64,000 nt of DNA from Amphiscolops sp. MND2022 (lineage: Eukaryota). The notes under the pieces are model-generated. The model was not told the DNA's origin and ran no database searches. It saw only the letters and a program-made list of their open reading frames with translations. The stretch is taken from positions 23,252,001 to 23,316,000 of the forward strand of contig OZ076409.1 of assembly GCA_964187785.1 (NCBI GenBank), in the 5' to 3' direction. The position numbers and the translations under genes are program-made. Numbering within the stretch: the stretch's first letter is position 1; each line of letters opens with the position of its first letter. Below are positions 13,592 through 38,392 of this stretch, one piece after another.

Positions 13592-14299
13592 TGTAACGTC
13601 CACCAGTCAATACCAAGTTTTCGTTGAAAAATTCGATCAAGAACCAAAAAAGGTGCGAATCAAAATGGCCGACCTGACAGGTCCTTAAAGCCCATAAAAT
13701 GAAAGAGAGAACGCGTGAACGAGAAGAATGACAGGAGAAGAAAAAGAAGTAGACGACTGACGACATGAAGATCCATGGGATAGAATTCAAAGAACGCTAC
13801 CCGGTGCTATGTCCTCCCTGGGAAAGCAGAGCCATTCCAGAACTACATGATTGGATCCCCGAGAACCTACAAACAGTAACTCTATTTCCACTCGGGGCCT
13901 ATCCCCCTTTATTTTGTTGACCTATGTTAATGTACTTTGCTGTTTTTCCCGTGCCTGACCTTCTAGGTCGGCATTTCATGCCCATAACTGTTGAAATGAC
14001 ATTTTTCGGATAAACACCTTTTTGGACCTCGGAAGTATGTGGGAGATAGCAGGAACACGCTAAAACCTTAGGATACGTTTTTACAGGCTTGTGGGGCGTG
14101 TCCGGACTTTGAGAGTGCCGGCGCGTCGCCTCGGAGCTCTAATTAGAGGAGTCTCCTTAGACGTTAGAAAAGTCCCCCATGGAGACCATTTTGGGATCAA
14201 AAACTAGTGTCTAGGTATGTAGTAAGACAACGGTCTCCTGTTTAAGCATCCTAGGCATTGTCCCTCTTCCTAGATGTGCGCCGCTAGCCGGACGTTACA
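13592..14299 (+). repeat. 5' LTR (708 bp)
   Basis: TGTAACGTCC...GGACGTTACA; no difference from 31665-32372 found on read-through. Confidence 0.97.
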
Positions 14300-14315
14300 T
14301 CTGGAATAGTTTTTA

Positions 14316-14332
14316 TGGCGACCACAGAGGGA
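14316..14332 (+). promoter_or_regulatory. Primer-binding site TGGCGACCACAGAGGGA, probably tRNA-Arg(UCG)-type
   Basis: Complement of a tRNA 3' end (..TCCCTCTGTGGTCG-CCA), resembling animal tRNA-Arg(UCG) ends as recalled; lies 16 nt downstream of the LTR. Confidence 0.7.
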
Positions 14333-16982
14333 TATTTTTCCTTGCCGCGTCCTGCGAGGAGCAACTCCTGCTTTCCGGCCCTGAAAGGTCCGGATCTAGG
14401 AGAAGCTTTTGGGAGAGTCCTAGATTGTTTTTATTGCCTTATTCTAGCCCTTTGGGCCTTGTATTAGTGTTTTTCCTGCGTTTCCTGCATGTTTCCGAGG
14501 TCCCTAGCCTGAAAAAGACAGTTTGAAACAGTGTACCCCCTTGTACCTTATCTGTACTCATTAAAAAAGCTATTCCGGCTTATCCGGAACGTGTTTTAAC
14601 GGGTTTTCCAGCTTCTTTTCAGCTAATTAGCAATGTACAGGGACAGCGAGGACGGTTTGTGAAGACCCGAACTAGCTGAGTGCAGGGCTGCAGGTGCTTC
14701 ACGTCATAGCCTCTTCCTCCCCACCTGGTGCCGATTCACCGAAAATAGCTGGGTTATTTCGTTCCCTTTACGTTTTCTAGCCCCAAATTAGTATTCCCAG
14801 GCCTGTTTTTGCATAAATTAACTGTGAATAATACCCACAGGGTATTTACATCAGTTATTCCAAGGACTTGAGCTCGAAAACGCCAAAAAAGACACTAAAA
14901 ACAGCTCAAATATCGAAATTTCCCGTTTTGAAAGCCAAAATTTTATAGAATTGTTCACGGCCCGTGGGAATACCTGAAAAACGTTCTGTCGGACCTACCA
15001 GGTTGAGAACAAAAAATTCTGTTGGGCTGTTTTTCAAAAAAGCATGAAAATTTCAGCAATTTTTGTTCAAAAATAGGCAAAATTGGCCATTTTGACCAAT
15101 TTTAACGAGGGCGAAGCCTTGGGCGTTTGCTCCCAAGCCTCTTGAAAGGCCCAAAAATTTTGTTGTTGTGCTTGGTAGTACGCAATACTACTACCAAGAC
15201 GGTTTTTGAACACCCCCAATATAAATTGAAGTTTTAACACCACTTTTCTTTCATTTAAATAGACCTGAGTAGAGGACCCCATAGACCTGAGAGCTATAAC
15301 ATCAAAAATAATAATTGAAAGAACCCCACTCCCCTAAATAAAGCAGTTACACCTTCCTACGGTACTGTTAAAACCATCTCTAACCTCTGGGAACCGAAGA
15401 ATAAGAAGTTCCTAGGGACAATACGTGTTTTTCATAGGTGTTCCCAGAGTGTCCAAGGTGTAACCTAAAACCAATTTTGAGAGACCCTAGCTGGAACCTG
15501 CCAGGTTTCGCTCGCTTATTTTCTATTAGTAGAGAGTACTAGATTACCAACGCTGAAAACCGCGAGTGATTCCAACCAGTGGTTGCCGAGAAATAGCCAA
15601 AAACGTATTATTTTTGTGACATTTTCGGAACACTAGAGTAGTGCTTCCAGCACAGGTCGAAATCTCTCCTAGCAGGAGTAGCCCAAAACGGATTGCACCA
15701 TCGTGTAGACCATAAAAAGTTACGTTAGTGGTGTAATTTTCATAGCGCTACCATTACTAGTGATTGAGAAATCTTAGCCGCAGTTTTGCTCAAAAATGAT
15801 CCGAAAATGTCGAAAAAATTGAATTTTAGTTGAGCATAGTGCTACACCTTGCAGGTATCCCAGCACTAAAATTCTTACGTTTTCGTATATACGGCGCTAG
15901 ATCCCGACGATTTGTGCATTTTGAGCAGCTTGCTACTGTCCAACTTGGAGAAATTGACAATTTTGTGAGTTTTAGCCCCTGAAAGTGACATACAGGGTAC
16001 ATCATAGTTTTGTCGACTCGGATTGCGAAATATTGACCTGGGCACCCTGCTAACTTATTTTTCTGTTACGTGGGCATAATTCACGCTCGCATACAAAATT
16101 TCAGATAGCTAGGACGCCTAGAAGGCGAGTTTGACCACTTTTTGCGAAATTCGCGACATAGCCAATTTCTCAGTGAACATTGTTAAGTGGCCGTGACACA
16201 CGCAGAATCTATTTTAACGCAATCGGAAGCTCATTCCCCACGATTCAGCTAGTGTACTAGGCGGTGTAAAATTTTCAGGTCGCTAGCACCACTAGAAGTG
16301 ATTTTCGCCTTCCCCGGAGGTGCTGCTTGATGAGAAAAACGAGATTTTGAGAAAAAATTAATAGAAAACCCGAGCATCCCCAATCATGATACACCCCATT
16401 CAGGGCTGGAGTCATCTGTTTAATGCATTGAGCAAGTCCCACACACCTTGCCGAACCTATAAGATCCATATAAAGTCAGCCCCAAAATCAACGATCTTCC
16501 ACTAAACCCTCTACGAGATCAAAAGACGGTAACTCCAAAAATCGAAATTCGTTTCTTCCCCGCCGTTAAGGTCGCCTAGGTGCAATCTACTCGCCACAAC
16601 CACCTCAACCCTACGCCTCGCATACCCTGAGGGTGCGAGGGTGCGCCTGAGAATATCAAAACAATCACAAACCAGGTTTGCGGAACGCGCAGAGAAACTA
16701 GGACAAGCACAGGGAAGATCACTCACATCATTATAACCCCTTCACCCACGACCCATAAAGCCATAAACCAGGTCATCACTCGATACTCAACCCACACGTT
16801 CCCAATCAAATCCCAGATCATTTCCAGTCCATTGTCCACCCATTGTCCCCGAATCAGCCCACCCATTGTTCTCAGCCTCCTCACAAAAAAAAAAAAAAAT
16901 TTTTTTTGTTACCTTTAATTTTGTCAACTATATAGTGGAAACTTCACACGCAGTGGAAGTTAAAATATTACATTTCGTGGCC

Positions 16983-19900
16983 ATGGAACGACGCGAGACT
17001 AACACCATCATTAGCGACTTCCATGCCACCAACCCTTTCGGAAGAAGAACGGAAACCACAACCGAACAAAACGAATGTAGATTAGATTCAGCCATAGCAG
17101 CCGTAATTTCAGAAGCTATGTCTGACTTCGTACCGAGCCAGGAACAAAACGCGGAGATAGCCGCTGCCAATACCCAGCCTAACTCCTCGCGAGCCTCCCC
17201 CGATAGCACCAATCTACCGGATAATACTGAGAACAACACGCAAAGAGACACATGGCCCCCGCTGGAAGTCACTGACTACAGCTTGGAAAACTGGCCAAAC
17301 TCCAACCAAGGGCCCATCAGTGAGCTCAGCATTGTTGATACCCCCAACGAACAAAATGACACTCCAATGACTCCACGGGCGGACCCAAAGATGGCAGAAG
17401 TCGAAAGGAACCCCCTGGGTTCCCAGGAGATGATCAATAGCGTAGGCGGAAATCCCTTCCGAAGCGGATATGCGCTATCGGAAGCACCGGCCAAAACGTC
17501 GAACGGGCCAGCGGAAAACTCGAAGACGAACATAACAGAGAATCCGTTAAGATATGTTTTTCGAACGCCACCCTCGGTAACATCAAAAATTAACTATGCG
17601 AATGCGAGTCGAACGTCTCACACACCAGACTCTCAAGCTAGCGCCGACACCAATCTCGACTCAACAATAACCAAAGCGAGAAAGGAAATGCAAACGGTTC
17701 GAGAAGACTTTCAGAGTAGTCTGGCACAGTTAGCTCAAGTCCAGACGAGGCTGGCGAGGGAAAACAACGAACATGAGATGCGCGCCGACATGATAATGAG
17801 GGACATGGACGAGCTACGAAAAGGTCTGTTGGAAATGCAAGCGGAAGGGCGACAAAATCAAGGTCGACTGGAAGCGTCAATGGCATCTCTCAATGATCTG
17901 ATTAAACAGAGAGAAACTACAGCGGACGCTCGCATGGCCGAGATGTCTGCAATAATGAGAGAAAGAGACCGCCAAGCAGATGAGCGCATGAAAGCAATGA
18001 CAAACACGATGCAGCGTCGCGACATAGACTCCAATGTCCGCATGGCGGACTTGATGATGGCAATGCAAGATTTAACATTGGGAGTGAAAGCAATCGTGTC
18101 GCAAACCCCCGCGCAGCAAGCACAAACGGCGCCGCGGATTCCCCAAAAATATCAACAGACCGAAATGCCATCTACAAGCGAAGCTCCCCAACCTCATTAT
18201 AGAACGGTGGCACAACACACAGCAGAGCCTCCTAGGCCTCCAAAACTAGTGCCACCCGCAACGTACAGGCGTGACCTGTCTAAAGCTAGCAAGGTGGCTA
18301 AGGTAACCCACACGGAATCACGAGACGCAGGTACGGACCCAATGACTGACCCGCCGTCGTTTGACCAGTACGCTCGCGGAACATCAACCTCCGGCGATTT
18401 TCATTCCGCCGCCGACGAAACGAACACCCGCAGGACCAGCTACTATACGGCCGATTCAAGCGCAGCATTCCGCCCACCTGCGCGGACGCAAACGTTCAGA
18501 GACTTCGTTCCGCGGCCAGTGGCCACCAGTACGCAGCGTAAAATGACAAACAAGCGGAATTTAGAACAAGGCAAAGGCGAACACAGCGACATTGAAGAAA
18601 TGCCCTCAATGGCAGAAGAGACTCCAGACACGCCGAGAACTACCCAACGACAAGCACTAGCGGAAGCAATATCTACGGCCATGTCTAAAGGCTTAGAGCC
18701 GTTGCTCGCCGCCAAGGAATCTAAAAACAAGCCCACGAAATATAGAGGAACCCGAGACGGAAACGCAGATGGATGGATGATGTTAATGAAACGCCATTTG
18801 GAAAAAGCACACCCTAAGGCGACCCCCCTCGATAAGGCGTGGACAATAATTGAGTATCTAGAGCATGAAGCCAGGGATTACATCACGAATAAATCCGAAG
18901 CAGAGAGGGACACTGACGAAAAAGTATTCGCGTTGCTGGCGCGTCGCTTTGGGACAGGTTCCAGCAAAATCCATATCCAACAGCAATTTAGAACCCGCAA
19001 CCAGAATAGCGAGGAGGACTACATGCAATACCTTGACGCCCTCGAAGGCCTGCGTAGTCAAGGTTACCCCAATGAAGAGGTGACAGTTCGTCGATACGAA
19101 ATCATGCAAAGATTCATTGAGGGAGTACGCAACTTCGAACTAAAAAGGAACCTCGCGCTAATGTATGCACCGGAACAATACGTGGAAACCCCACCAACAG
19201 TGGAAGCCCTCCGCTTCACAGTGCAACAATACTTACGCATGCGAGGCTCAACCCGTTCGGACAACTACCCAATGATGCCTCCTCCACAACAACAAGCCAA
19301 TATCCAACAACCAAATCAGTCTCCAGTAGCACCCGCGCCTGCCCAAAAAATGCAACAACAACAGCCTCCTCAACCAGCAGCATACCAACAACAACCCATG
19401 CCACCGGCAGCCTATCGTCCGCAACCCCAAAGAGCGTGCTTCAACTGCGGAGACCCATCGCATTTTGTGGTGGACTGCCCCCTGAAAGACCGTGCACGGA
19501 AGCCAGTACAACAGCAAGTGAACTCCTGTCACACGAACCCGACGGGTAGTTGGATGTGCCCCTCCCAGCCACGTGGCTTAAACTATGATGTATTCCCAGC
19601 ATCCCTACCAACCCAAGGCACAGTTGCCTTCTGCATTAATTGCGGCCGTACTGAGCACTCGGCGTCAGAATGCATGGCCTCGGAGCAGATGAGTCACGAA
19701 GAACAAATCCGTGCAGCTTGGTATGCTCCTTCACCAAGTCAATTCGATAACCTGAGCCAAGACGACCAAGTCCGGGTAATATCAGTAGCGGAAGATGGAG
19801 GTCCCTCCCGACCTGTAGTAGTCACTTGTGGCGAGAAACAAGTACTCACCACACTAGAGGCACCCGCCCCAGATTGTACAGAGACACTTATCTCGATACA

Positions 19901-22900
19901 CTTACTACTCTCGGCCGAACAAAAGACGCGGCCCACGCTGACGCTATCGCAACTAAAGGAGGAATTATGCAGAAACGTGAAGTATACCATCGCAGCGCGA
20001 CCGCTCCCACATTTCGCGAGAGAAGACGAAACGAAACTGGCCCCAATACAGAAAGTTAAAACCGTTTCTCCGGTGCCGGTAGCCATTAACGTAGACGGTG
20101 TAGACATGAAATTTGACGCTATTGTAGTCTTGGAAGGTCACTTCCCTCAGGGATTGTACTTGGGCCGCCAGGAGTTACGATGTTATAACATCGGAGTGCA
20201 AGATGCCCAGGGGGAGGCTCGTATTGACGAACGGGCATCCCTGGTGGTTGCCTTTGGCAACACTATCCAGGAACCAATACCCTTGTACGGGATGATAGAC
20301 ACCGGTTCCGGTGTCTCCATTCTCTCTCTCAAAGCCTATCAAAAAATTGCATCACCCCACGCCCTGAGCCTCCTACCATATGACATCCAACTGTATGCCG
20401 CCAATGGTAAAACCATCAACACCATTGGAATCGCCGAAAATGTTAGCTTCCAGTTGGGCGGATATACCCTCCGAACCAATTTCATAGTCATTGCCGATCA
20501 CCTAGGCGCGGAAGATTTCCTACTTGGCAGAAACTTCTTGCGCACTTACAACGTTCTCGTGGACTTGACGGCCATGAGGGTCACTATACGAGACCCCAAA
20601 GCGCCACGCCACTTCAAACCCGTCCATGAGGTAAGTGATCATGAGCCATCCCTAGTGATATCCACCGAAAAAGTAGTTCTAGGCCCTTATGAGCGTAAGC
20701 TAGTACGAGCCCAAATTATTTCTCAAAAGCACAACGAGTACCTTTTCCGAAACGTAATGATTCGCCCCCAGGGGGTATCTAAACGATCCCCCTTTGTTTC
20801 AGAAGATACATTGACGTCTGTTGGAGATGAAGGCATTGTCTTCATAGCCCTACGAAACACTACCCCCTCTGAAAACGTAACTATTCAAACCAAAACTGTC
20901 CTCGGTAAGGCAGAACTTACAAATTTTGTGTTGCAACCTGTGGCTGCCGACACGGCAACCGAAATTGATAAACCTTTGTTTGAACAAGTTAATAGAGTTT
21001 ATACCGAAGAGTGGTTAAACGAAACGAGTTCAGAATATAGTTCTTTTGCTCAAAACTTCTTGTCCTCTACTGAGATATCTGAAGAAGGATTGTCGGAAAG
21101 CGAGAAACGTGCTCAGACTGACCCACAATTACTAAAACCTATACCAGGTCCAGACCTTTCTTCCGTCCTTTCTTCATGGGGGGAGGGAGCGAGAGATCAA
21201 CTAGCAAGCGTTCTGAGCGAGTACGATGACCTTTTTATGAAACATAAAGCTGACATAGGGAGGTGCAAAATAGCGAAACATCGTATAGAACTAGAGCCGG
21301 AAGCTATCCCGCATAGAGAAGGCGCTCGGCGCATGTCCCCAGATAAGGCAGCAAAGGCTAATCAAGAGGTACGGAATCTACTGGCCCTTGGCCTAATTCA
21401 ACCCTCCTATTCACCGTGGGCAAGCGGAATAGTCATGGTTAAAAAGAAAACAGGCGAACTTCGCTTCTGCTGTGACTTCCGACCGCTCAACGACGTAACG
21501 GTCAAGGACGCGTTCCCATTGCCCAGGATTGATGAAAGTCTATCCCGGATAGGCAATGCGAAAATTTTCACAAGTATTGACCTAGCGTGGGCCTTCTGGC
21601 AGATACCGCTAAAGAAGCGCGATAGAAGGAAAACAGCATTTGCCTGCGAACTGGGATTGTTCGAATGGCGGCGCATGCCCTTTGGGCTATGCAATGCATC
21701 GGCCACATTTCAGCGCTCCATTACACGAGCCCTGCAAAGGATCCAGCAGCGACACGGGAGTGTCGTTATGGCTTACATTGACGACATAGTTATCGCCACG
21801 GAAACCATAGAAGACCACATCGTACGAATCAAGGAAGTATTCGAGTGTCTCCGAGAGGCTGGATTCAAGATGCGCGCCGAGAAGTGTGACTTCATGCGTA
21901 CGGAGACGAAGTACCTGGGGCGAGTAGTATCCTCGGAAGGCATCAGACCAGACCCCGAAGCAATAGTTAAAATCCAAGAATGGATGCCCCCGAGAAACAA
22001 AGAGGAGCTTCAGAGCTTCCTAGGGTTTGCAAACTATTACAGAGACTTTGTACCGTTTCATGCAGCCAAAGTGCAACCCCTGCAAGAGTTGCTCAAGAAA
22101 AGTCAGCATTTCCACTGGGAAATGAAACACCAAGAAGCCTTCGATGCAGTAAAGGAAGCACTAGCAAACGCGACCGCCTTGGCAGCCCCAAATGAAGACG
22201 GACGATTCGTGCTCGATACCGATGCTAGTGCGGTAGCGATAGCGGGAATCCTGCACCAGGAACAGGAACACAATGGGAAGACTATTTTACGGCCAATAGT
22301 CTTCGGGAGCAAATCTCTAACGAAGACACAGCTGAACTATGGAGCACCCAAGTTGGAAATGTACGCAGTATTTTACTTCATAGAGAAGTTCCACTCATAT
22401 CTCGCAGGCCGAGAGTTCACGCTCCGTGTGGACAATCAGGCCCTGTCATGGCTTAAAACGTACTCCATGGACCAAGCCATGATAGGTCGCTGGATAGCCC
22501 GTCTGGATCAATACAACTTCAAGACGATCCACCGACCTCGCACACAGCATCGAAACGTGGACGGCCTCAGCAAACGAACCAACGACTATGTGCACCGGGA
22601 GAAAATCCTCGAGAAGTTACCGGAAGTGAGTGAAGGATTCAACTTCATGACCAAAGAAGACTATGAAGCACTCCCCACCGTGCCATACTTTGACAAACAC
22701 GGACGCCCAATACCAAACCACCCAGAGCTCCCGCCGGAAGCTCGAGCCCAACTCCCACTGCTGTATATCTTGGGAAAAAGACCCAAAACGAGCTTGCAAG
22801 AGCCCCCGGTGAATGGTGCCCCATGGTATCCTCAAATACAGTGGGAGGCGACACCCACCACAGATGAGGATCACCGACCGACTCACATCCTCAGCATCAC

Positions 22901-25900
22901 GACCAAAGTGCCACCGGCACGCCTAGACACTGAAGAACCTGATCCTGTGCTTGAAGAGATGCCACCCGAATGCCAAGCACAAGCCAACGCCCTTAGAACA
23001 GTTGGAACAGAGCTGCATGAACACTTTCTGACCAGACGTGGCCTCAAGGACCTGCACCTAGCACAAAATAGGGACATGCACCTCCTAGCGCTGAAGAAAC
23101 TCATGAACGGCGAACCACTGGAAGAAACAATGTTCCCCGAAGACGTACAAGACTTCGCGCGACGCTACTTCCATCAAAAGAAAGACCTGCTCTTCCTGAA
23201 CCCAGACGATATTCTCTGCGTCAACTACGTTCCGCAACAACGTGCGCTGCACGCGCGACCGTGTATGATAGTCATGCCACAACTATACCAACACGAGATT
23301 CTGTATAGGGCACACGACGAATCGGGACATCAGGGCGTAGGGAAGGTGCTAGCGAGAGTACAAGAACGGCATACCTGGCCGGGCATTAAGCGTGACATAG
23401 TCAATCACATCAAGCACTGCTTGACCTGCCAGCAAACAAAACACCCCGCCGGGAACCCCTGCTACCCCTTGCAGAACATCAACAGCAGCAATTTCAACGA
23501 CCTAGTACAATTCGACCACCTCAAACTATGCAAAACCGAATCGGGAAACACCGGTCTCTTAGTCATGATAGACCACTTCACGAAATTCGCCGAGGCTATT
23601 CCGTGTGCCCACGACGAATATGATGCCCAAACCACAGCTAAAATCATCCTTAATAAATGGTTTGCCAGACACGGCACTCCAGCACGGATGCAATCCGACA
23701 ATGCCACGAATTTCACAGCTGAAATCGCACAGGAGCTAATGAAAGCCTCGCAAGTCACTAAAGTGACATCCACTCCAGCGCATCCTCGAGGAAATGGACT
23801 CGTGGAAAGGCAGAACCGAACGTTACTCGCACTGCTAAGAGTCTACACTTCGCGACGAATGCAGGATTGGGATGAGCATATTGATGGAATCCTCGGTGCG
23901 TACAATTCAACTAGACACGCAACCACTGGATTCTCTCCCTATATGCTCCAACACGGAGCCGAGAAATCCATTCCCCTGTCATTCATCTACCCAGAATTTG
24001 CTGCCCGAGGATTCGATTCCAAAGAAGAATTCGTGGAACATCTTCTAGCCAGACAGCAAGAAATCCATGAACTTGTCAGAAGAAATACACACCAAGCACA
24101 GCTACGGCAAAAGCTGAAGTTTGACCGCCACCTGAAAGCCAAAGCGCACGCTGTAGGCGATGCGGTGTGGGTATTCTGCCATATCATACCCAAGGGTGGC
24201 ACCCGTAAGCTGATTCGCGCTTGGCGCGGACCCCACAAGGTGACCGACGTGTTGCAGGACGGACGATTATATGTACTAGACACTGGCCAAAAGGTCCACT
24301 ACGAAAGATTGAAAAAGCATGTGCCTGCCCCTTGGGACTGGGCCGCACACCAGCCCTTTGGGCCGAATCAAAACGTAGCCATTATTGCTGATCCGTACGT
24401 AGAAGAAAGCAATGAAGAGATAGCGTCCGACATCTCCCAAGACTCTTTCCTACCGGAACAACTTCCGGAAGCATCCTTCGAAATGGAACCGACAGGATCG
24501 ATTCCACCTCGTACCATTCAGACTCGTACCCAAACAGCACTCGAACAAGGAATACCCCGAAGAAGATTCAGCCACTTCGGGTACCCCTCTAACTCAGATT
24601 CCGAAAGAGAGGAAAATGAGCCGCCGATTCAGAGCCCACCACCGCCAGTAGTGTTCCCCGACTTGGACGACCTAGAACCACTGTACTCCGACCAGGAGGA
24701 AATTCAGCCGGCCGTACCTACGAGTCTGATACCATCACCCTCAGGGACCTCAGCCCCCCTACTATCCAATCCGTCCCTAACAGACACCCTGAGTAACTTT
24801 CCCTTGTTTGGCCCCCAATTAGAGAACCCGATCGACCCGATAGAAAATGAACCAAAGTCAGAAACTGAGAATGAAGAAGAGACAACCCATCGCAGTCCAA
24901 GCCATTGCTCAACACAACCCGATACCACGAATCGTAGAGGACGGCCTCGAGGCCGACCACTAGGTCGAGGAAAACCCCGCGCTATACCATCCACTAGAAC
25001 CACAACATCGTCGCGAACCCAAACCGCACGATCCAGAAGAGGCCCTAGGGCAAGAATGAGCACTCGTGCACCCCCTCGAAAACTAGACCGAGCGATGACT
25101 CTACCAGAAATACCCGAAAGCCAACAACCACCAGATGTCCAGGACTCAGAACCAAGACCACTATCGCGAACATCACGATATCAACTGCGAGCTAACAGAA
25201 CACCACGTTACAAGTGTGGAACCTGTGGTTCCCGCAACTGTAGTTGCGTCAAGCATCTGACTCGCCATTCACCGGACAACCGATTGGCCCGGGGAGCGGT
25301 AGTCCCTGCCAGGGATCTCTTTATGGCCAGGACACATTGTCACCCACAACATGAGATCTTAACCGTGCAAGCCCAGCGAGAAAAGGTGGTGGAGACACCC
25401 CCGCTAGTGCACCATTTGATCATCACGGTAGAAAAAACTTTCACTAGTGTGGAACGAGAAGCGATACCACCGCTGGAAGAAACACTCAAAGCAATGCACG
25501 CGACATCTCCCTCCGACTGCCCGACTTACCGATTCAAAGAATGGACACCTCCCCATCGAGGCGGTCTAGAATTCACCCTACATGCCATCATACCGCCTTT
25601 GCCACCCTCGATGACATTCGGCGAGCTAGCAAAAGAGGATAATAGCCCGGAGATGATCCGCTGTATCACTGCACACCAACTGTGGGAGAAATATCACATT
25701 GCCTCCCCGCCGGGAGACATATATCAGCCCACCAATGGATGGTGGCTACTTGTCACCTCTCTAGACGCAACGACATTGGTATCTCCCACAACTTTACTGA
25801 TGTGCTTAGAAAGCTTGCGTACAGTAACCGAACCTGAGAACACGCTTTGTTTCCACATGGCCGATATTTATCGTGGCAAGTTCCTAAGCCAACATTGGCT

Positions 25901-26654
25901 ACAATTAATAGCGGTCGTCTTCTGCCGACAGGCGAAGATACACTTCCTGGATCGACAATTTTATACACCAGAAAAACCCGTCACGGTTAGCGAAGCACTC
26001 TCGATAGTACACGATTGGTCATCTACAAACTTGGGAGATAGACCTCTACGCCGAACCGTCTGGGAAGACCGACAAGCAATCTTGCAGCATTTGACACCCC
26101 GACCCACCGATGATCAGAGCAGAACCACCGGCAAATGGCTCATAACCCAGCCTAAAACCAGACCGAATTACTTACCTTGGATAAGTTATGACAACACAGA
26201 TATCCTGCAGGCACCTGGCACCGTGATACTATGCTGCCCTGCGGATTTGCTCTCTTACTCTGCCACAATCCGTTACGTCATTCGCGAATACGGTCAAGAA
26301 AACATATTTCGTCTAAGACCATCAGTTGGCACCGCAATTCGCTTAACCCGCTCGCCAACTGCACCCTGGAATAACGAAATCTTCCTTCTATGTACCAGAG
26401 CATCGACCAAGCATCCGCTCTTACATGAAGTACTCCATGCGTGTTTGACGAATTTGATAACCCAGCTCCATCGAAACCGCATTACCAGAATCCACTTGCC
26501 CATCTATGATCCTGAGCGATCGATGAACCTCCTTCCAGCCTGGTACGCCACACTACGCGACCACTTTGCAGACCACAACATAACAATAATTTTGCACGAT
26601 CGCGTCTATGTCACGATAGCGTCGATTACCTCTGCCAACTTTGGCGGTAGTTAA
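16983..26654 (+). CDS. gag-pol: Gag-Pol polyprotein, 3223 aa, single frame, with long N- and C-terminal extensions
   Basis: ATG in GCCATGG at 16983; coiled coil ~17670-18090; capsid-like ~18730-19240; CCHC knuckles 19437-19478 and 19632-19673; protease DTG 20298-20306; RT YIDD 21774-21785; RNase H 'DTDAS...ELEM-like KLEMYA...VDNQAL...NVDGLSK' ~22200-22580; integrase HHCC ~23310-23430, core D(QFDH)-D(SDNA)-E(VERQN), 'WRGPHKV' motif ~24222. Confidence 0.97.
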   Translation: MERRETNTIISDFHATNPFGRRTETTTEQNECRLDSAIAAVISEAMSDFVPSQEQNAEIAAANTQPNSSRASPDSTNLPDNTENNTQRDTWPPLEVTDYSLENWPNSNQGPISELSIVDTPNEQNDTPMTPRADPKMAEVERNPLGSQEMINSVGGNPFRSGYALSEAPAKTSNGPAENSKTNITENPLRYVFRTPPSVTSKINYANASRTSHTPDSQASADTNLDSTITKARKEMQTVREDFQSSLAQLAQVQTRLARENNEHEMRADMIMRDMDELRKGLLEMQAEGRQNQGRLEASMASLNDLIKQRETTADARMAEMSAIMRERDRQADERMKAMTNTMQRRDIDSNVRMADLMMAMQDLTLGVKAIVSQTPAQQAQTAPRIPQKYQQTEMPSTSEAPQPHYRTVAQHTAEPPRPPKLVPPATYRRDLSKASKVAKVTHTESRDAGTDPMTDPPSFDQYARGTSTSGDFHSAADETNTRRTSYYTADSSAAFRPPARTQTFRDFVPRPVATSTQRKMTNKRNLEQGKGEHSDIEEMPSMAEETPDTPRTTQRQALAEAISTAMSKGLEPLLAAKESKNKPTKYRGTRDGNADGWMMLMKRHLEKAHPKATPLDKAWTIIEYLEHEARDYITNKSEAERDTDEKVFALLARRFGTGSSKIHIQQQFRTRNQNSEEDYMQYLDALEGLRSQGYPNEEVTVRRYEIMQRFIEGVRNFELKRNLALMYAPEQYVETPPTVEALRFTVQQYLRMRGSTRSDNYPMMPPPQQQANIQQPNQSPVAPAPAQKMQQQQPPQPAAYQQQPMPPAAYRPQPQRACFNCGDPSHFVVDCPLKDRARKPVQQQVNSCHTNPTGSWMCPSQPRGLNYDVFPASLPTQGTVAFCINCGRTEHSASECMASEQMSHEEQIRAAWYAPSPSQFDNLSQDDQVRVISVAEDGGPSRPVVVTCGEKQVLTTLEAPAPDCTETLISIHLLLSAEQKTRPTLTLSQLKEELCRNVKYTIAARPLPHFAREDETKLAPIQKVKTVSPVPVAINVDGVDMKFDAIVVLEGHFPQGLYLGRQELRCYNIGVQDAQGEARIDERASLVVAFGNTIQEPIPLYGMIDTGSGVSILSLKAYQKIASPHALSLLPYDIQLYAANGKTINTIGIAENVSFQLGGYTLRTNFIVIADHLGAEDFLLGRNFLRTYNVLVDLTAMRVTIRDPKAPRHFKPVHEVSDHEPSLVISTEKVVLGPYERKLVRAQIISQKHNEYLFRNVMIRPQGVSKRSPFVSEDTLTSVGDEGIVFIALRNTTPSENVTIQTKTVLGKAELTNFVLQPVAADTATEIDKPLFEQVNRVYTEEWLNETSSEYSSFAQNFLSSTEISEEGLSESEKRAQTDPQLLKPIPGPDLSSVLSSWGEGARDQLASVLSEYDDLFMKHKADIGRCKIAKHRIELEPEAIPHREGARRMSPDKAAKANQEVRNLLALGLIQPSYSPWASGIVMVKKKTGELRFCCDFRPLNDVTVKDAFPLPRIDESLSRIGNAKIFTSIDLAWAFWQIPLKKRDRRKTAFACELGLFEWRRMPFGLCNASATFQRSITRALQRIQQRHGSVVMAYIDDIVIATETIEDHIVRIKEVFECLREAGFKMRAEKCDFMRTETKYLGRVVSSEGIRPDPEAIVKIQEWMPPRNKEELQSFLGFANYYRDFVPFHAAKVQPLQELLKKSQHFHWEMKHQEAFDAVKEALANATALAAPNEDGRFVLDTDASAVAIAGILHQEQEHNGKTILRPIVFGSKSLTKTQLNYGAPKLEMYAVFYFIEKFHSYLAGREFTLRVDNQALSWLKTYSMDQAMIGRWIARLDQYNFKTIHRPRTQHRNVDGLSKRTNDYVHREKILEKLPEVSEGFNFMTKEDYEALPTVPYFDKHGRPIPNHPELPPEARAQLPLLYILGKRPKTSLQEPPVNGAPWYPQIQWEATPTTDEDHRPTHILSITTKVPPARLDTEEPDPVLEEMPPECQAQANALRTVGTELHEHFLTRRGLKDLHLAQNRDMHLLALKKLMNGEPLEETMFPEDVQDFARRYFHQKKDLLFLNPDDILCVNYVPQQRALHARPCMIVMPQLYQHEILYRAHDESGHQGVGKVLARVQERHTWPGIKRDIVNHIKHCLTCQQTKHPAGNPCYPLQNINSSNFNDLVQFDHLKLCKTESGNTGLLVMIDHFTKFAEAIPCAHDEYDAQTTAKIILNKWFARHGTPARMQSDNATNFTAEIAQELMKASQVTKVTSTPAHPRGNGLVERQNRTLLALLRVYTSRRMQDWDEHIDGILGAYNSTRHATTGFSPYMLQHGAEKSIPLSFIYPEFAARGFDSKEEFVEHLLARQQEIHELVRRNTHQAQLRQKLKFDRHLKAKAHAVGDAVWVFCHIIPKGGTRKLIRAWRGPHKVTDVLQDGRLYVLDTGQKVHYERLKKHVPAPWDWAAHQPFGPNQNVAIIADPYVEESNEEIASDISQDSFLPEQLPEASFEMEPTGSIPPRTIQTRTQTALEQGIPRRRFSHFGYPSNSDSEREENEPPIQSPPPPVVFPDLDDLEPLYSDQEEIQPAVPTSLIPSPSGTSAPLLSNPSLTDTLSNFPLFGPQLENPIDPIENEPKSETENEEETTHRSPSHCSTQPDTTNRRGRPRGRPLGRGKPRAIPSTRTTTSSRTQTARSRRGPRARMSTRAPPRKLDRAMTLPEIPESQQPPDVQDSEPRPLSRTSRYQLRANRTPRYKCGTCGSRNCSCVKHLTRHSPDNRLARGAVVPARDLFMARTHCHPQHEILTVQAQREKVVETPPLVHHLIITVEKTFTSVEREAIPPLEETLKAMHATSPSDCPTYRFKEWTPPHRGGLEFTLHAIIPPLPPSMTFGELAKEDNSPEMIRCITAHQLWEKYHIASPPGDIYQPTNGWWLLVTSLDATTLVSPTTLLMCLESLRTVTEPENTLCFHMADIYRGKFLSQHWLQLIAVVFCRQAKIHFLDRQFYTPEKPVTVSEALSIVHDWSSTNLGDRPLRRTVWEDRQAILQHLTPRPTDDQSRTTGKWLITQPKTRPNYLPWISYDNTDILQAPGTVILCCPADLLSYSATIRYVIREYGQENIFRLRPSVGTAIRLTRSPTAPWNNEIFLLCTRASTKHPLLHEVLHACLTNLITQLHRNRITRIHLPIYDPERSMNLLPAWYATLRDHFADHNITIILHDRVYVTIASITSANFGGS

Positions 26655-26984
26655 GAGCACGTCTCGCCCTCTACTTAGCATATCAGGCCACTGGCCTTTT
26701 GCACTGCCTTTAGTTAATTCGAAGCACCTTAAGATTTTAACAAGGCCGCGCCGACAAGCGCAAATTTTAGTACTAACCACTGAAACTTTTTAACCTTATG
26801 TTTGTGTGTTCGTCCTAAAAAGCTTAACTGCCCACCCGTCTATGTGATGTCTTATCTCCAACTGTAACCTGTTTTTCAGTTTTGTCCTGTTGCCTCGCCT
26901 CTGCGCGGCCCCCATACTTATCACGCCAAATCAGTCTTGCCATCACAATCTTCGGTGCTAAACATTCCTTTATCATCGTTTCCA

Positions 26985-29900
26985 ATGGACCCATCTGCGC
27001 GACACCGCCTGCCTGCACCCCAGAACGCTGCGCGTGCCCAACCATCCACAAGGAACGACCCACCCCCAATGATGAGCGAAATAGATGGTCGAGTCGACCA
27101 GCTAGCTCTTGTCCAAGACACCCTACTAAACGGAGCGACACCCACAATGATCACTGGCTTCGCCATGATCATCGCCCAAACCCAAGCTCAAGCAGAGTAC
27201 CCTGATGTTAGCTTCACTATCACCAGCCGAGTCGGCCCGATAGAACGCTCCGCCACTTTTCGCGACGGTACCTGGCAAGGGTATGACTTGACCCACAGCC
27301 TCATAGACCCTCGCTCTCACGTAGTCTATGGAGAACCTACCAGGCCCCCCATGGACCAAGAACGATCACTCCGCATTTCACAGTCAGCACTACAGACGTC
27401 ACAGACACAAACTACGACCCCGTTGCCCTCGCCGCACCCGGTGCAGTTCAGCTGCACGCTGCCAATCATGCCACCCCCAGTACTAACACCACCCATGCCC
27501 CTGGCATCGGAAGGCATTCGCCTACTGACCACCCCATCCTCTACCTTCATGCCTCCATCTACCTTTCAGGGGGGAGGGGTGCAAGTAGACAATACAGCAA
27601 GTGCTACCCTGAGCGAAGAACAGCCCAGGAGAACGGTGACGTTCAAAGATTCATATGAAGAATTAACTCAGACGTCTTCCAGAACCGAATCACAAGTCTC
27701 GGAACCTCCACAAGCCTCAGAACCAGCTAGCCTAGTAGGCTTCCAAATGGACCCACAATTCCGAGAACGTCAGCGAGAACAACAAAAAGCCGAAAGTAAG
27801 GCAGCCAACACTGTGGTAGACCTCCGGGAGAAAATAAAAGCTGGAAAGCGAGCCAGAGAGGCGACCATGCAAAGTAAACAATCGAGCTCGACCAGTGTCC
27901 CGCAACCCTTGTCTGCCTCACCCACGCAACCAGAAACAAGGAGACCGAGAATAACACACGAACTCCTAACACATTCGGAAAAACGGCAGCTGGATATCAC
28001 TGCACGCGACGCACTGCGTCTGCAGCGGGAAATACCAACCACAACGCCACCAGAAGACCCTCTACGACAGAAATTCGAGACCGCAACGGGAACTGGGGAC
28101 TTCGCCACAAGGCAGAAAATAGAAAAAGCCACAGTGGGAGTACTCTACAATCGTCCCGTCAAGAAACCAGTGTTCACTCGAGACGGATGCCCCCCATGGT
28201 TCAATCGCATGCGAGCAGAATTGGAGAGAGTGAACTCGACATACATGCGTATTCCTGACAATTTCATCCGACAGCGCCCTGGCCGCTTCGACGAAGATCG
28301 CTTGCGAACAAAAAACTATGCGAGGGACCCCATTACAATCCTGCCCATGGAAAAGGACCTTTTGCAGAAAACCAGAATAGCCTTCTTCGTCGACTCGACG
28401 ATGAAGTCTTCATTCAACTCCCACAATACCCTCATGGATGTCAGAATAATGAACATGCCCTGTACAACACTGAACGAAATGGCAGAGGTGACCGACAAAG
28501 TATTCACCCAAGCGGGAACAGAGACCATCCCATTACCTCCGTTGCTGGTATATTCAAATGTGATAGATCACCTCGCTCTGCGAGGGACCTTGGAATTTTT
28601 CCGACCAGACCACGAAAGATTTACTGAGGGGTTCGTCACCGACGAAGTGACCAACTACGTGGAGACAATGGCGAATATTGCCCAAACTATGCGCAGAAGG
28701 AAAGCTGTCACTGGAACGGTATTTATGTCACCTCCAGGCTACGTGCACCTTCCTCGGACCCTTCAGCAATTCTTATACCTAGTAATGGAGGCAGCGTACG
28801 CAAGAGATCTGGCTTTTTACATTGTGGCCCCCAATTTACGTATCAGCAATAATAGCTGGCGCCCTTGTGAAGCCTCATACCCAGCCTTCGTTGCTGAAGT
28901 CTCAAAGGCCCTTCAATCATACGTCGGTTACCGCGGAAACTCCCAAATGGTAGTGGATGAAGCAACAGCATTCGACTACGGGATGGAAATGGCTCGCCGA
29001 TCATTGAATGAGCGTGGAGACCGAATCGTAAACGACCCAAATGAAAGTGAGCGCAACAACCTGGTGGATAACCTCTGGTTTGAACGCCGGGACGAATCAA
29101 CAATAGACGAGAAAACACATGAACCCAAGTTTCACAAGGAACTCACGAATCTAATGAAAGAAACCGAGACGATTCAGGGTGATAGAAAGAATTCCTCCAT
29201 CTTCCCCATAGCACAAATATCATTGGATGCTGAACCTGGGCAAAGATCACCCACATTGGCCATGCTGTTGATACTAGCTCAAGACATTGTACAAAGGAAT
29301 GTTCAAGAGCCGACACACACGTACCAAACATGGCACGATCAACTACGAGAACCTTTGGGCCAAGTCGCGGACCGACTGGGCATAACATTTCCCGTATTTC
29401 TCCACAACATCTCTCCCTTCTGGCTTCCTTCCTTAGTACAAGCCGAGTACGGCCTGGATGAGCAGCGAATGCGACTTTACATGGAGGCCATGGAAAGAGC
29501 GACCGTTAGTGAACTACTAGCGTACCTGATGGCCGTGGGGTTGACCATGATGTACAGAGGACCATCGGCCCTCATACAAAAGTTCGTGCTCAACAAGGGA
29601 GGCTCAGCCCTGTTCAGCTTCCTAGTCTTCTCGCAGAATCAAAGAGGTTGGATATCTGCGCTCATTGAAACCCTGGACCCAGCGGGTTCCCTGAAATTAA
29701 AGACGCAGCTGGACTTAAACATTCAAGCACTTCTAGTGTGGATTTATTCCACCTGGGTCAATGTCTCGGGCGTTATGCATCCTCTGGATGAGTGCCCAGC
29801 TATTAACCGAGACCCCAATCAACTTCCTGGGTTCCTGTTCCCTACACAAGTTGCAACATTGATGCTCGTGGAAACAGAGGACCTAATACCCCTCATTGCT

Positions 29901-31079
29901 CCGATAGTCTGGCCTATCTTCGGCGCAGTTATGGCCCTGCGCTATCCAACGCAAGCCCTGCGAGTGGCAGCGGTGAGCCCATCCCTCTCGATTCTACATT
30001 TCGTGACCTCCGATGGGCCCCTTCAGGGTCCCACCTATCAATCAGTGATACACAGCTTTGCCAACTTGCGACCTCCCATGGCGTATACCGTAATCAAAGA
30101 CCGCCAACAAGTGGAACACAACTATCTCACCTTGATCAAGGCGAGAGCACGTAGCTCGCTCCCTTTGCCAATGGAAATCCATCCGGTAGTTTGGCTGCAC
30201 ACCCCCATTGATCCAAATAATGGAGCAGTGGCGACATTTGAAGGGTGGGACGTGCCAGTTGTCCTGCGTATCTTGAGAACAATTATCCAAAGATTGGGTG
30301 GTCGTCGAAAAGGAGAAGAACCTACTAGGTTATTGTATCCCTATGCGTGTGACACTTCCAGAATATATTGTGCGAGAACAGAACCCCGTGAGCATACCGC
30401 CAGAATCTTGAATACCATTACATGTTGGGCCCAGCCGGAGCTCGTGGACCTCGCTATACACCAAACCTTCCAACAGCTGCCAACAACTATTCCGACAGTA
30501 GCAAAGGAACCAAGCAAGAAAGATTTGCCCGTGAACACTGACGTTCCCAGCAACCCGCGTATGGCACTAGAGATATTCGTGCGTCTGCATGGTCTCCAAC
30601 GAGAACGTACTCGAGCCGTGGGCGAAGAATACGCTAGGGGAATACGAACGTTCAGGCAGCTGTTCATCCAATATGGCCATCAAGAATTAGCGGACGGTTT
30701 GCCGAACTTGGAATCAGTCGAAGCTATCCCAGGAATTAGCGATTTGAGCGAAGCTGCCTCTGGCAGCTCTCGCACCGTCTTCCCCACACCCCACGTGAGT
30801 CAAGACTCCAATGAAATATTGGTGGAAAGGGCACAAGATGATGTGCCAGGTGTCATGCCACCATCAGGGGAACCTATGACTGATAATAACTTCACGTTCT
30901 CTGATGCCACTACTCCTGTAAGAGACGAAGTGGAAACCAATATCTCGAACTTGGAGGCAGCGGACATAGAGTCAGAGCTCAATAATCTGCTGACCATAGA
31001 CGAAGAGTATCAGAATACGGTGGATGCCATGGGCAACACCTCAGTCCAAGAAGCCCCACAGGACCAACTGCTGGAATAA
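26985..31079 (+). CDS. ORF2, 1364 aa, unknown function, in the env position; central SGNH/GDSL-like domain
   Basis: 4.1-kb stop-free frame between pol and PPT, ATG in CCAATGG context, base composition like pol; no N-terminal signal peptide; SGNH-like blocks at 28374-28920. Confidence 0.9.
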   Translation: MDPSARHRLPAPQNAARAQPSTRNDPPPMMSEIDGRVDQLALVQDTLLNGATPTMITGFAMIIAQTQAQAEYPDVSFTITSRVGPIERSATFRDGTWQGYDLTHSLIDPRSHVVYGEPTRPPMDQERSLRISQSALQTSQTQTTTPLPSPHPVQFSCTLPIMPPPVLTPPMPLASEGIRLLTTPSSTFMPPSTFQGGGVQVDNTASATLSEEQPRRTVTFKDSYEELTQTSSRTESQVSEPPQASEPASLVGFQMDPQFRERQREQQKAESKAANTVVDLREKIKAGKRAREATMQSKQSSSTSVPQPLSASPTQPETRRPRITHELLTHSEKRQLDITARDALRLQREIPTTTPPEDPLRQKFETATGTGDFATRQKIEKATVGVLYNRPVKKPVFTRDGCPPWFNRMRAELERVNSTYMRIPDNFIRQRPGRFDEDRLRTKNYARDPITILPMEKDLLQKTRIAFFVDSTMKSSFNSHNTLMDVRIMNMPCTTLNEMAEVTDKVFTQAGTETIPLPPLLVYSNVIDHLALRGTLEFFRPDHERFTEGFVTDEVTNYVETMANIAQTMRRRKAVTGTVFMSPPGYVHLPRTLQQFLYLVMEAAYARDLAFYIVAPNLRISNNSWRPCEASYPAFVAEVSKALQSYVGYRGNSQMVVDEATAFDYGMEMARRSLNERGDRIVNDPNESERNNLVDNLWFERRDESTIDEKTHEPKFHKELTNLMKETETIQGDRKNSSIFPIAQISLDAEPGQRSPTLAMLLILAQDIVQRNVQEPTHTYQTWHDQLREPLGQVADRLGITFPVFLHNISPFWLPSLVQAEYGLDEQRMRLYMEAMERATVSELLAYLMAVGLTMMYRGPSALIQKFVLNKGGSALFSFLVFSQNQRGWISALIETLDPAGSLKLKTQLDLNIQALLVWIYSTWVNVSGVMHPLDECPAINRDPNQLPGFLFPTQVATLMLVETEDLIPLIAPIVWPIFGAVMALRYPTQALRVAAVSPSLSILHFVTSDGPLQGPTYQSVIHSFANLRPPMAYTVIKDRQQVEHNYLTLIKARARSSLPLPMEIHPVVWLHTPIDPNNGAVATFEGWDVPVVLRILRTIIQRLGGRRKGEEPTRLLYPYACDTSRIYCARTEPREHTARILNTITCWAQPELVDLAIHQTFQQLPTTIPTVAKEPSKKDLPVNTDVPSNPRMALEIFVRLHGLQRERTRAVGEEYARGIRTFRQLFIQYGHQELADGLPNLESVEAIPGISDLSEAASGSSRTVFPTPHVSQDSNEILVERAQDDVPGVMPPSGEPMTDNNFTFSDATTPVRDEVETNISNLEAADIESELNNLLTIDEEYQNTVDAMGNTSVQEAPQDQLLE

Positions 31080-31656
31080 AGGAGTCCTCTGGACCCTCAA
31101 GACTGTTAGAACACAATTGAGCATAAAGGACCCTATCATCAATGTACTAATGCTAATTCTTGATTTTAGTTGTGCTACACCATCTTGCTGGTGCTGAAAA
31201 CTTTCAGTGCAATAAACCTTAATTCCTGAGTTTTGTTTGATGTATATTATACTTTGCTACCATTGTAACAATGCAATATAGTTACATCCTCTGGGTGGGT
31301 CCCGGTTCGGTGCCCTCCCGTTTTGATTTGAATTGGAAACTTCTACCAAGCCCAAAAGTTGTTGTTACTCACCTGGCCGCGCAGGGGCCCTATTTTAGAA
31401 AAAGAAATTTTAACTTGAACTGAGGAGTTAGTGAAAAAACCTTTTTAAAGAAAAAATCCGACTGTATAGTTTTTAACTTAAAAATCTGTGCTTTTTGAAT
31501 TCGATGGCTTTAAGGTGCTAGACATGCAGTAGTAAGGCGAAAAGAAAAATAATGTGGAATCAACGTAGCTTTGACATAAGACCTTTTCTGTGGACCTCAG
31601 AGTACCCTTTGGGTGCGAGCATCCTCTCGTTTGCCGGGGACGACAAACTACGGCCC

Positions 31657-31664
31657 GGGGAGGA
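31657..31664 (+). promoter_or_regulatory. Polypurine tract GGGGAGGA
   Basis: Purine run immediately 5' of the 3' LTR TG. Confidence 0.8.
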
Positions 31665-32372
31665 TGTAACGTCCACCAGTCAATACCAAGTTTTCGTTGA
31701 AAAATTCGATCAAGAACCAAAAAAGGTGCGAATCAAAATGGCCGACCTGACAGGTCCTTAAAGCCCATAAAATGAAAGAGAGAACGCGTGAACGAGAAGA
31801 ATGACAGGAGAAGAAAAAGAAGTAGACGACTGACGACATGAAGATCCATGGGATAGAATTCAAAGAACGCTACCCGGTGCTATGTCCTCCCTGGGAAAGC
31901 AGAGCCATTCCAGAACTACATGATTGGATCCCCGAGAACCTACAAACAGTAACTCTATTTCCACTCGGGGCCTATCCCCCTTTATTTTGTTGACCTATGT
32001 TAATGTACTTTGCTGTTTTTCCCGTGCCTGACCTTCTAGGTCGGCATTTCATGCCCATAACTGTTGAAATGACATTTTTCGGATAAACACCTTTTTGGAC
32101 CTCGGAAGTATGTGGGAGATAGCAGGAACACGCTAAAACCTTAGGATACGTTTTTACAGGCTTGTGGGGCGTGTCCGGACTTTGAGAGTGCCGGCGCGTC
32201 GCCTCGGAGCTCTAATTAGAGGAGTCTCCTTAGACGTTAGAAAAGTCCCCCATGGAGACCATTTTGGGATCAAAAACTAGTGTCTAGGTATGTAGTAAGA
32301 CAACGGTCTCCTGTTTAAGCATCCTAGGCATTGTCCCTCTTCCTAGATGTGCGCCGCTAGCCGGACGTTACA
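31665..32372 (+). repeat. 3' LTR (708 bp)
   Basis: Same length and sequence as 13592-14299. Confidence 0.97.
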
Positions 32373-32401
32373 GTATTTTAGTGTTTTTATCAAAGAATCT
32401 A

Positions 32402-36547: not shown

Positions 36548-38392
36548 AGGCATAGCGACAACTCATCAAGCGACAACTCATATCAAGCGACAACTCAAAT
36601 CGAAAAGGCGACAACTCATATCAAGCGACAACTCATATCAAGCGACAACTCATATCAAGCGACAACGCATATCAATTATGAAAAAGCGACAACTCATATC
36701 AATTTTGAATTGAAACAAACGATATCTAATGAAGTAATTAGAAAGAATAAAGGCAGTTTAAACTTCAAAATTGTTCGCTAGACCTTCTAGCAATGAGAGA
36801 ATGCGGTTGTTCTGATAATTGCTCAAGATGGTTTGTATAATTGCACGTGGGGGCTCGAACTAACTTGTGCACGATCTTTGACTTCTTGTTTGACTCTAAA
36901 AAAAGATGAAGACGCATGCTCAGAATAAAAACGCACGGCACTCTTTCGTTCTTTTTGGTACTACGGCATGAGTGTGACTCGTTTTAATGATGTCATCGCT
37001 AGTTTAGTCAGTCAATGCAACACTTTTGCATCCTGCCACATCACATCGCCAAGCATTACAGTGCACAGGCAAGCTATTCTGCTGCTTTTCGTGGAATCCG
37101 GGACACGAAAAGTGGGAAAAGTCGTGGAATCCAGGACAAAATTTCTCTTTGATGTTAAGCGTGTCTTGGATTCCACGACAGTGCTTGTCCTGGATTCCAC
37201 GCCAATACTGCTGCTATAATGACACTTTTGCCGCTGCTCTCTGATTGGTCCGCTGATTTTGAGTAATCATTTTTGGAAAGGTAGAAAAATTTAACATGAT
37301 TCAATTTTATATCAAAGGAAATTGTTTTGATTGACACGAAAAACCCAAGATGTACGAATAGAGATACTCGTGACTGGTACCAAAAATGAAGCATGTCATT
37401 AAAAAATGGCAGATTGTGATGATCTGGCAGTTTGTTCAGAACTGGTACTAAACTTCAAAAAATACGAATAGTTTGTGTGATATTGGTGTGTTTGTCTGTT
37501 TGTCTGAATCATTTTGAATTAATATACGAAAAGTAGTGCATAATATTATGTTTGTTCAGTCTTTCACTTGAATTTAATTAAAGAAGAGTTGCCGCGTATC
37601 GCGTCAAGCATAAAGTCGTGGAATCCAGGAAATTTATGATTTCTGCAATCTGATTGGTTCATTTTGCAAAACTTACGTTTTTGCGGAATCCGGGACACCG
37701 CTGCATGCCGACAGTGCGTACAGCTAAGCATTTTTTACTGGAATCCACGACGAAATCTGTGGAATCCGGGACAAATGACGTAATTTGCCAATTTTGCACG
37801 GTTAAAGGTATGGTCGTGGGATCCGAGATATTGAAAGCACAATGTTGCGCTTTGAGCACATAAGGCTTGCCTGTGCACTCTAATGAGAAGTCACTCCACT
37901 TTTGTTGACTCTATAGTAGTTGTAGTAAAACCCGTCGTGTTCCAGTTTCTCAACTCCGCGTTGAGACAAAACAAAATTCAGTAGCATTTTCAATTTGGAA
38001 TAGAAATTCAGTTCGATAGTTCGCAACGATTACTTTTTGGAAAGATAAAATAGGAATGGCTCCAGAAAAATGGCGCAGGCAATATGTGTACACCTCACTA
38101 ATTTTCTACCTGTTCGCGCAAATACCACTTCCGGATTTTGATACAGTTTGGTTAATTCAACGTTCATTTGGTGTATTAGTGTTAATAGCCACTAATGTGT
38201 GATCAAATTGACTGAGACGCTCTTTGAGCGATGAGTTGATTGATTGCAAATTAGCATCCATTAGCACCTGATATGAGTTTTCCATTTCAATATATGATAT
38301 GAGTTGTCGCTTGGTATGAGTTGTCGTTTTTTCAAATTGATATGAGTTGTCGCCTGATATGAGTTGTCGCTTGATATGAGTTGTCGCCGTAC
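36548..38392. mobile_element. Non-autonomous TIR DNA transposon (Mutator/foldback-like) with tandem-subrepeat arms
   Basis: Left arm ~8x (A)GCGACAACTCATATCA (36555-36701); right arm of inverse TGATATGAGTTGTCGC repeats (~38269-38387); GCTAAAGG on both sides (36540-36547, 38393-38400). Confidence 0.75.
37054..37885. mobile_element. MITE nested within the 36548-38392 element
   Basis: 21-bp TIR CATTACAGTGCACAGGCAAGC / GCTTGCCTGTGCACTCTAATG (1 mismatch); ~9 subterminal GTCGTGGAATCCRGGAC-like motifs; no clear TSD. Confidence 0.7.

Follow-up and report, generated by a model that had tools for sequence, protein, structure and literature searches.

In the bdelloid rotifer element Vesta1, the slot of env is taken by ORF3, an open reading frame (ORF) for a GDSL/SGNH protein with intact S, G, N and H residues, and Athena-L retroelements bear dead GDSL derivatives (PMC5408684). 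Among planarians, giant Gypsy elements that carry accessory domains have been described (PMC6431247). Conserved splicing near the protease, as described for Ty1/Copia elements, was not seen in Arabidopsis Gypsy elements (PMC5580714), and a term search for esterase and SGNH found neither in an eLife survey of env-carrying elements (PMC13524379) nor in PMC6338049. Here, a 64,000-nucleotide (nt) stretch from Amphiscolops sp. MND2022 (assembly GCA_964187785.1, contig OZ076409.1, positions 23,252,001 to 23,316,000 of the forward strand) was investigated, referred to as the window and used for all coordinates below. An intact 18.8-kb Ty3/Gypsy element at 13592-32372, with two identical long terminal repeats (LTRs), houses ORF2 (26985-31079, 1364 amino acids (aa)) between gag-pol and the 3′ LTR; all features of the element are on the plus strand. 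The core of ORF2 is probably a pseudo-esterase of the SGNH fold, as judged from a structural model, and the ORF is under purifying selection.

ORF2 starts 330 nt past the gag-pol ORF and ends 585 nt short of the 3′ LTR. An original prediction, made from the sequence letters, had described a 1364-aa ORF in the env slot that is not an Env, and both the ORF and its parts were found where that prediction had put them. Residues 101-400 are rich in P, T, Q and S, the charged coil RERQREQQKAESK is at residue 260, the quoted hydrophobic helices are at residues 843, 913 and 967 (nt 29511, 29721 and 29883), and the acidic tail (residues 1241-1364, 30705-31076) contains 26 D+E versus 3 K+R. The features of an Env were absent, in agreement with the prediction. 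Hydropathy was the only basis of the signal-peptide and transmembrane (TM) calls: a signal-like N-terminus was missing from the upstream open frame and the first 45 residues (best 11-residue hydropathy 1.15), and past residue 990 no Kyte-Doolittle (KD) window exceeded 1.24, so that a C-terminal anchor was missing as well. The 8 Cys in 1364 aa do not make up a Cys-rich ectodomain. No fusion-protein fold was among the structural matches listed for models of residues 406-1240 and 741-1245, in which 930-1240 were modelled with low confidence. Small sORF2/FAST-like proteins are 60-210 aa long with a single TM segment and an MGxxxS/T start, and ORF2 with its 1364 aa and its MDPS start is not of this kind. 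ORF2 is almost certainly not an Env.

A 300-aa probe from ORF2 (residues 435-735) was compared with the genome, and all 131 scored matches (131 of 3131 candidates) were 95-100% identical; approximately 102 of them, by hand count, were in an open frame of at least 1396 aa. Forty plus-strand matches were fetched so as to span the range of identities, some short frames included. The gag-pol end was directly upstream of ORF2 in 40/40 of these sister copies, and an ORF2 of at least 1357 aa was kept in 30. Further lineages were detected in the same genome at approximately 60%, 47% and 27-30% ORF2 identity, and in six of six elements from four other lineages ORF2 was located between pol and the 3′ LTR. 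The slot is hence held in 46/46 fetched elements from five lineages, down to 27% identity. The pairwise ratio of nonsynonymous to synonymous substitutions (dN/dS) among 41 copies was 0.11 for ORF2, with 0.07-0.11 in the core and 0.18-0.19 in the disordered parts; the integrase of the same copies, serving as a control, gave 0.02. The SGNH region (0.07) was among the lowest in ORF2, the value for residues 435-735 being biased because this stretch was the probe, while that for 721-1100 (0.11) is largely unbiased. ORF2 is under purifying selection, and the proposal of a selected accessory protein is supported. A match to a fusion glycoprotein or a recent host gene, or a dN/dS near 1, had been named beforehand as speaking against the prediction; no such match appeared and dN/dS was far below 1.

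Database homologues of ORF2 reach 23-30% identity. Three distant ones gave no match in this genome at strict E-values (137, 98 and 78 candidates scored) and are probably from other hosts, and scans of metagenome and viral sequences for the context of P0217 and the P0227 group gave no confirmed locus. One homologue on an 816-nt contig bears the label of a bacterial metagenome-assembled genome, which is likely contamination. In another database protein, P0003, the C-terminal half of ORF2 is tandemly duplicated.

Sequence searches of Pfam (with ORF2 and 32 aligned members) and of PDB (by sequence or profile) named no known domain in ORF2. Designer PPR proteins, the top PDB sequence match, were rejected because weak repeats on a single stretch add up to that match, and Mediator Med5, found in the ESM Atlas (0.89), was under the lead threshold. 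Residues 406-1240 were modelled by AlphaFold2 from an input of 140 sequences (mean predicted local distance difference test score (pLDDT) 67, predicted template modelling score 0.54). In this model residues 462-652 (28368-28940) form a domain with pLDDT 69-96, mostly 85-96, and a structural search (VIA) with it returned SGNH-type proteins in 50 of the 50 rows listed. The best match was PAF acetylhydrolase (Z 11.3, root-mean-square deviation 3.5, 185 aligned residues); GDSL lipases were also matched, as was Oskar OSK at Z 7.6. The model thus makes it very probable that the ORF2 core has the SGNH fold. The "globular middle" of the original prediction is indeed folded, but it is not anonymous, the SGNH/GDSL fold at 462-652 having been overlooked.

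The catalytic register was derived from the ends of the alignment ranges and the block numbers in Table 2 of PMC10792757, which assumes ungapped ends. Ser471 (28395-28397) is thereby aligned with the nucleophile in five structures; Arg626 (28860-28862) is aligned with His157 in TesA and with His195 in PAF-AH. In block I, VDSTM, Ser471 was conserved in 38/40 aligned homologues and Asp470 in 36/40. The block II Gly was found only in the homologues P0217 and P0221, most others having MPC, MPL or MPH. Block III contains Asn525 (58/60) and Asp528 (58/62), spaced N-x-x-D and not G-x-N-D. In block V, position 623 is variable, without a conserved Asp, and Arg626 was kept in 67/76 sequences, with His in three fragments that otherwise resemble lineages C and D. 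Because Ser471 is kept while the His and Asp of block V were not found, ORF2 appears as an SGNH fold with an incomplete triad, in which the catalytic His is likely replaced by Arg626. On this register the core is probably a pseudo-esterase, and a classical hydrolase is not what we expect ORF2 to be.

Downstream of the SGNH domain, a model of residues 741-1245 was confident only at approximately 751-920 (29235-29744, pLDDT 73-97), where a compact all-helical domain is predicted. It gave no fold match (best Z 4.1; best E 0.75 in BFVD), which does not prove a new fold. The several hydrophobic helices of the original prediction are present, but as a membrane module they are weak: the first two are contained in this high-confidence bundle, where one is split in two (11+5 residues), and only one 19-residue window exceeded KD 1.6. 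This window, residues 967-985 (29883-29939), reaches 2.2, compared to 1.37 and 1.28 for the other two helices; it contains three prolines and was modelled with low confidence. KD was at least 1.8 in 15/17 aligned homologues, and three distant homologues have a Glu in the segment. It is more likely buried or re-entrant than a true span, and at most one hydrophobic segment may touch a membrane. In the disordered region, the basic clusters KRAR (288) and RRPR (319) at 27846-27950 resemble a nuclear localisation signal (NLS) by motif only; the cluster near residue 288 was present at the same place in 9/10 ORF2 sequences. A small N-terminal block (approximately residues 35-130, 27087-27374) is conserved with a dN/dS of 0.08.

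The element also displays predicted splice signals, which the original prediction had likewise overlooked. A donor at 20628-20636 follows gag-pol codon 1216 in phase 0, just past the protease, and is the strongest donor of the element. GT was common to all five lineages at 62 of 8439 aligned positions, among which this donor was the best (6.26 versus 3.62 for the next, by a simple weighting devised ad hoc; p = 3.7e-7 when residues and codon usage are taken into account, independence assumed). Identity at four-fold sites is as low as 28-37% when this lineage is compared with the others, and the donor signal persists through a residue change from E-V-S to Q-V-G. It was kept in 39/39 and 19/19 further aligned copies, one of 20 stretches being without a match. 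A near acceptor at 20788-20802, the best of three common YAG positions among 5718, delimits an intron of 172 nt (20631-20802; 181 nt in lineage B) that sits within a dUTPase-like stretch. Splicing here would shift the frame to a stop after 3 or 14 codons (3 in this element), so that a Gag-protease (Gag-PR) mRNA is predicted. The idea that the donor serves ORF2 alone was weakened by the discovery of this near acceptor.

A far acceptor is predicted at 26865-26879, 105 nt ahead of the ORF2 ATG, followed by an open linker of 35 codons (26880-26984) that varies little among copies and is whole in 40/41 of them. The far acceptor was pyrimidine-rich, in frame and stop-free in 7/7 elements at three distances from the ATG (105, 93 and 12 nt), and in two lineages its AG is part of an in-frame TAG. 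A leader donor conserved across lineages above a score of 4.25 was not found, and position −3 relative to the ORF2 ATG was a purine in one of five lineages. By comparison of the lineages, these predicted splice signals are conserved. Since the linker is in frame and no leader donor is conserved, joining of the far acceptor to the protease donor is, by a little, the pairing we would expect.

We tentatively propose that ORF2 is a non-Env Gypsy accessory protein, a pseudo-SGNH scaffold on the RNA of the element, made as Gag-protease-ORF2 by splicing. One donor, past the protease, would be joined to either of two acceptors. Use of the near acceptor would yield Gag-PR and fix the Gag:Pol ratio; use of the far acceptor would replace pol by ORF2 (Gag-PR-ORF2). 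ORF2 would be carried into particles on Gag and then freed by the protease. The Ser/Arg site as an anion pocket, the basic NLS-like patch and the helical domain might together chaperone the RNA or cDNA complex between cytoplasm and nucleus. Among the roles offered in the original prediction, a ribonucleoprotein scaffold fits best, peripheral membrane binding is possible and FAST-like spread is unlikely, with no observation pointing to an anti-silencing factor. In a more far-reaching version, an undescribed and very successful lineage of giant Gypsy elements derives three polyproteins (Gag-Pol, Gag-PR and Gag-PR-ORF2) by means of the one donor past the protease, carries in its particles, instead of an envelope, an Oskar-like SGNH pseudo-enzyme that bears a new helical fold and acts as a structural RNA chaperone, and integrates with a 3-bp stagger; this version is speculative and we regard it as doubtful.

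Several observations weigh against the scaffold made by splicing. The donor score comes from the ad hoc weighting mentioned, and conservation of the donor is explained by the near acceptor alone, so that its pairing with the far acceptor is argued from the reading frame only. No retro-copied spliced form was found among the 277 genome matches listed (longest open frame 1483 aa), nor any spliced form among eight long database matches. In the Foldseek search the same kind of match was obtained with E-values that are not significant (best 0.04 in PDB and 0.02 in BFVD), and by five other structures the catalytic His should be sought 1-3 residues further on, a stretch of ORF2 that is equally devoid of His. 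The SGNH domain has a net charge of zero (18 K+R, 18 D+E), and RNA binding by it is therefore proposed by analogy only. Finally, the ORF2 Met is kept in every lineage, and a fair donor (score 5.7) is present in the LTR of lineages A and C; both fit an ordinary env-like mRNA. They also suit a different reading, in which the pseudo-SGNH ORF2 is the sole translation product of an env-like subgenomic RNA and acts in the nucleus as a Rev/CERV-like exporter of intron-containing genomic RNA. Genomic RNA that retains strong splice sites would create a need for such an exporter, the NLS-like clusters would fit it, the long conserved non-coding leader might be its response element, and Cer1 CERV, made from a spliced mRNA, is a precedent (PMC10309623). 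However, the in-frame stop-free linker in 7/7 elements would be left unexplained, conservation across lineages was found neither for a donor in the leader nor for one in the LTR, and covariation in the leader is slight (−0.75 kcal/mol, 4/142 pairs); we hold the exporter to be rather unlikely.

A role at membranes is about equally improbable in our judgement. The SGNH domain would bind anionic phospholipids and, with segment 967-985, anchor particles to membranes, there to serve their assembly, transport or transfer without an Env, a role also suggested for the ZfL2-1 esterase; this esterase binds liposomes despite active-site mutations (PMC3905857). PAF acetylhydrolase is among the closest folds and the hydrophobicity of 967-985 is retained in 15/17 homologues, but the three prolines of the segment and the Glu in three distant homologues speak against an anchor, the domain is not basic, a signal peptide is missing and the basic clusters are off the domain, in the disordered region. 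That ORF2 is an active hydrolase or acyltransferase of non-canonical kind, using Ser471 with another base (His529 or Arg626), is quite unlikely. The near invariance of Asp470-Ser471, Asn525 and Asp528 and the low dN/dS of the SGNH region speak for such an enzyme, but block V lacks a His or a conserved Asp, distant homologues have Asp or Tyr in place of His529, and in most sequences the Gly of block II gives way to Cys or Leu. A view of ORF2 as an unrecognised envelope or fusogen would agree with the env-slot position and the one hydrophobic segment; the domains modelled with confidence, however, are an SGNH fold and a small bundle of helices, the signal peptide is missing, Cys are few (8) and the C-terminus is acidic and anchor-less, and we give this view hardly any credence.

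The LTRs of the element (13592-14299 and 31665-32372, 708 nt each, TG...CA, 100% identical) are accompanied by a polypurine tract at 31657-31664 and a putative primer-binding site at 14316-14332, which we take to be tRNA-Arg-like. The latter is 16 nt off the LTR end, a gap that is atypical for Ty3/Gypsy; in every lineage examined it was 15-16 nt off. Target duplications of Ty3/Gypsy elements are usually 4-6 bp, a length that is typical and not defining. Here the duplication is 3 bp, GTA (13589-13591 and 32373-32375). With L073-L092 paired with L034-L072, 3 bp was found in 16/17 testable sister copies and 4-8 bp in none (3/20 unparsable), and by eye 3 bp was found in 6/6 elements from other lineages. 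The element thus has the TG...CA repeats, primer-binding site, polypurine tract and domain order of Ty3/Gypsy and lacks the usual 4-6-bp duplication. The two LTRs of a sister copy share 99.6-100% identity, which makes this high-copy family of hundreds of elements very young. At one locus, L051 (G000:C7:29813171-29823071), the start of the element's own leader comes after the 3′ LTR and ORF2 recurs at a distance of 15 kb, which likely represents a tandem array with a shared LTR.

The non-coding leader (14300-16982, 2.7 kb) is over its first approximately 1.9 kb 56-94% identical between lineages, mostly at least 70%, despite saturated synonymous sites. No codon periodicity was found in 14000-16300, where the covariation given above was also obtained, and a coding or clearly structured leader is unsupported. 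The identity may reflect constraint or recombination between lineages. Gag-pol (16983-26654) is a single ORF of 3223 aa with a CCHC knuckle (aa 817-833), protease (1101-1194), reverse transcriptase (RT; 1486-1646), RNase H (1712-1844) and integrase (2099-2311), the Gypsy order according to Pfam. The dUTPase-like stretch between protease and RT (20650-20900) is weak, eight of ten weak PDB rows being dUTPases with a best E of 0.6. The tail after the integrase (25401-26651, 417 aa) is 40% identical in the farthest lineage, with a dN/dS of 0.12. It gave no match in Pfam and PDB searches and no similarity to the ORF2 SGNH region; a Macro cluster in the ESM Atlas (0.88) is a lead only.

Just left of the insertion, a decayed BEL/Pao element is located at 11300-13050 on the minus strand (Peptidase_A17, E 7e-15). 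To the right, an element of approximately 1.8 kb (36548-38388) has inverted ends of 17-nt subterminal repeats and is probably a non-autonomous DNA transposon, and 39000-64000 is satellite with 52-53-nt units, a strong skew between strands and a higher-order spacing of roughly 1.1 kb.

SGNH ORFs in the env slot are already known, whereas the large non-catalytic form, the splicing and the 3-bp duplication were not found in the literature searched. No publication on ORF2, on such Gypsy splicing or on 3-bp LTR duplications was found, Repbase and subscription journals not being covered; Repbase may hold the element unannotated. The role of non-Env ORFs in the env slot and the repeated recruitment of SGNH domains by unrelated retroelements are the open questions touched by these observations. 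Strong selection on an SGNH fold after loss of catalysis suggests that binding, not chemistry, is the selected trait, in parallel to Oskar. The conserved intron, the 3-bp duplication and the displaced primer site point to a Gypsy lineage with its own rules, which LTR finders set to 4-6-bp duplications are expected to overlook.

Compared with known systems, this element shares with Vesta1 an SGNH-fold ORF after pol and a dUTPase or dUTPase-like domain between protease and RT, and with Vesta1b the absence of a gag-pol frameshift (PMC5408684). By description, the Vesta GDSL ORFs are without coiled coil or TM, whereas ORF2 is a multidomain protein of 1364 aa with Arg at the position of the His and an extra helical domain. 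The ORF1p esterase of ZfL2-1 (4C1B; a weak Foldseek row, E 0.2) likewise places a retroelement SGNH domain behind a coiled coil, as known for the CR1, L2 and RTEX long interspersed nuclear elements; it is, however, active, with an intact triad, and belongs to ORF1 of non-LTR elements (PMC3905857). Oskar OSK (5A4A; PMC10792757) resembles ORF2 as an SGNH fold without a catalytic triad joined to a disordered region, but OSK is a host germ-plasm protein that has lost the Ser which ORF2 retains. The sORF2/FAST-like proteins of the MDG1 group (10.1101/2025.03.14.642691) are also non-Env accessory products of LTR elements, but are 63-107 aa long with a single TM and a myristoylation motif. The likeness to CERV of C. 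elegans Cer1, a Gypsy non-Env accessory protein linked to splicing (PMC10309623), is one of kind; the function of CERV is demonstrated, while that of ORF2 is predicted. The Gag excess of Ty1/Copia elements such as EVD and Drosophila copia is likewise obtained from a single gag-pol ORF with a conserved, stop-creating intron near the protease (PMC5580714); the element described here is, in contrast, a Gypsy element in which the predicted intron is past the protease and ORF2 would be joined on through a second acceptor far downstream.

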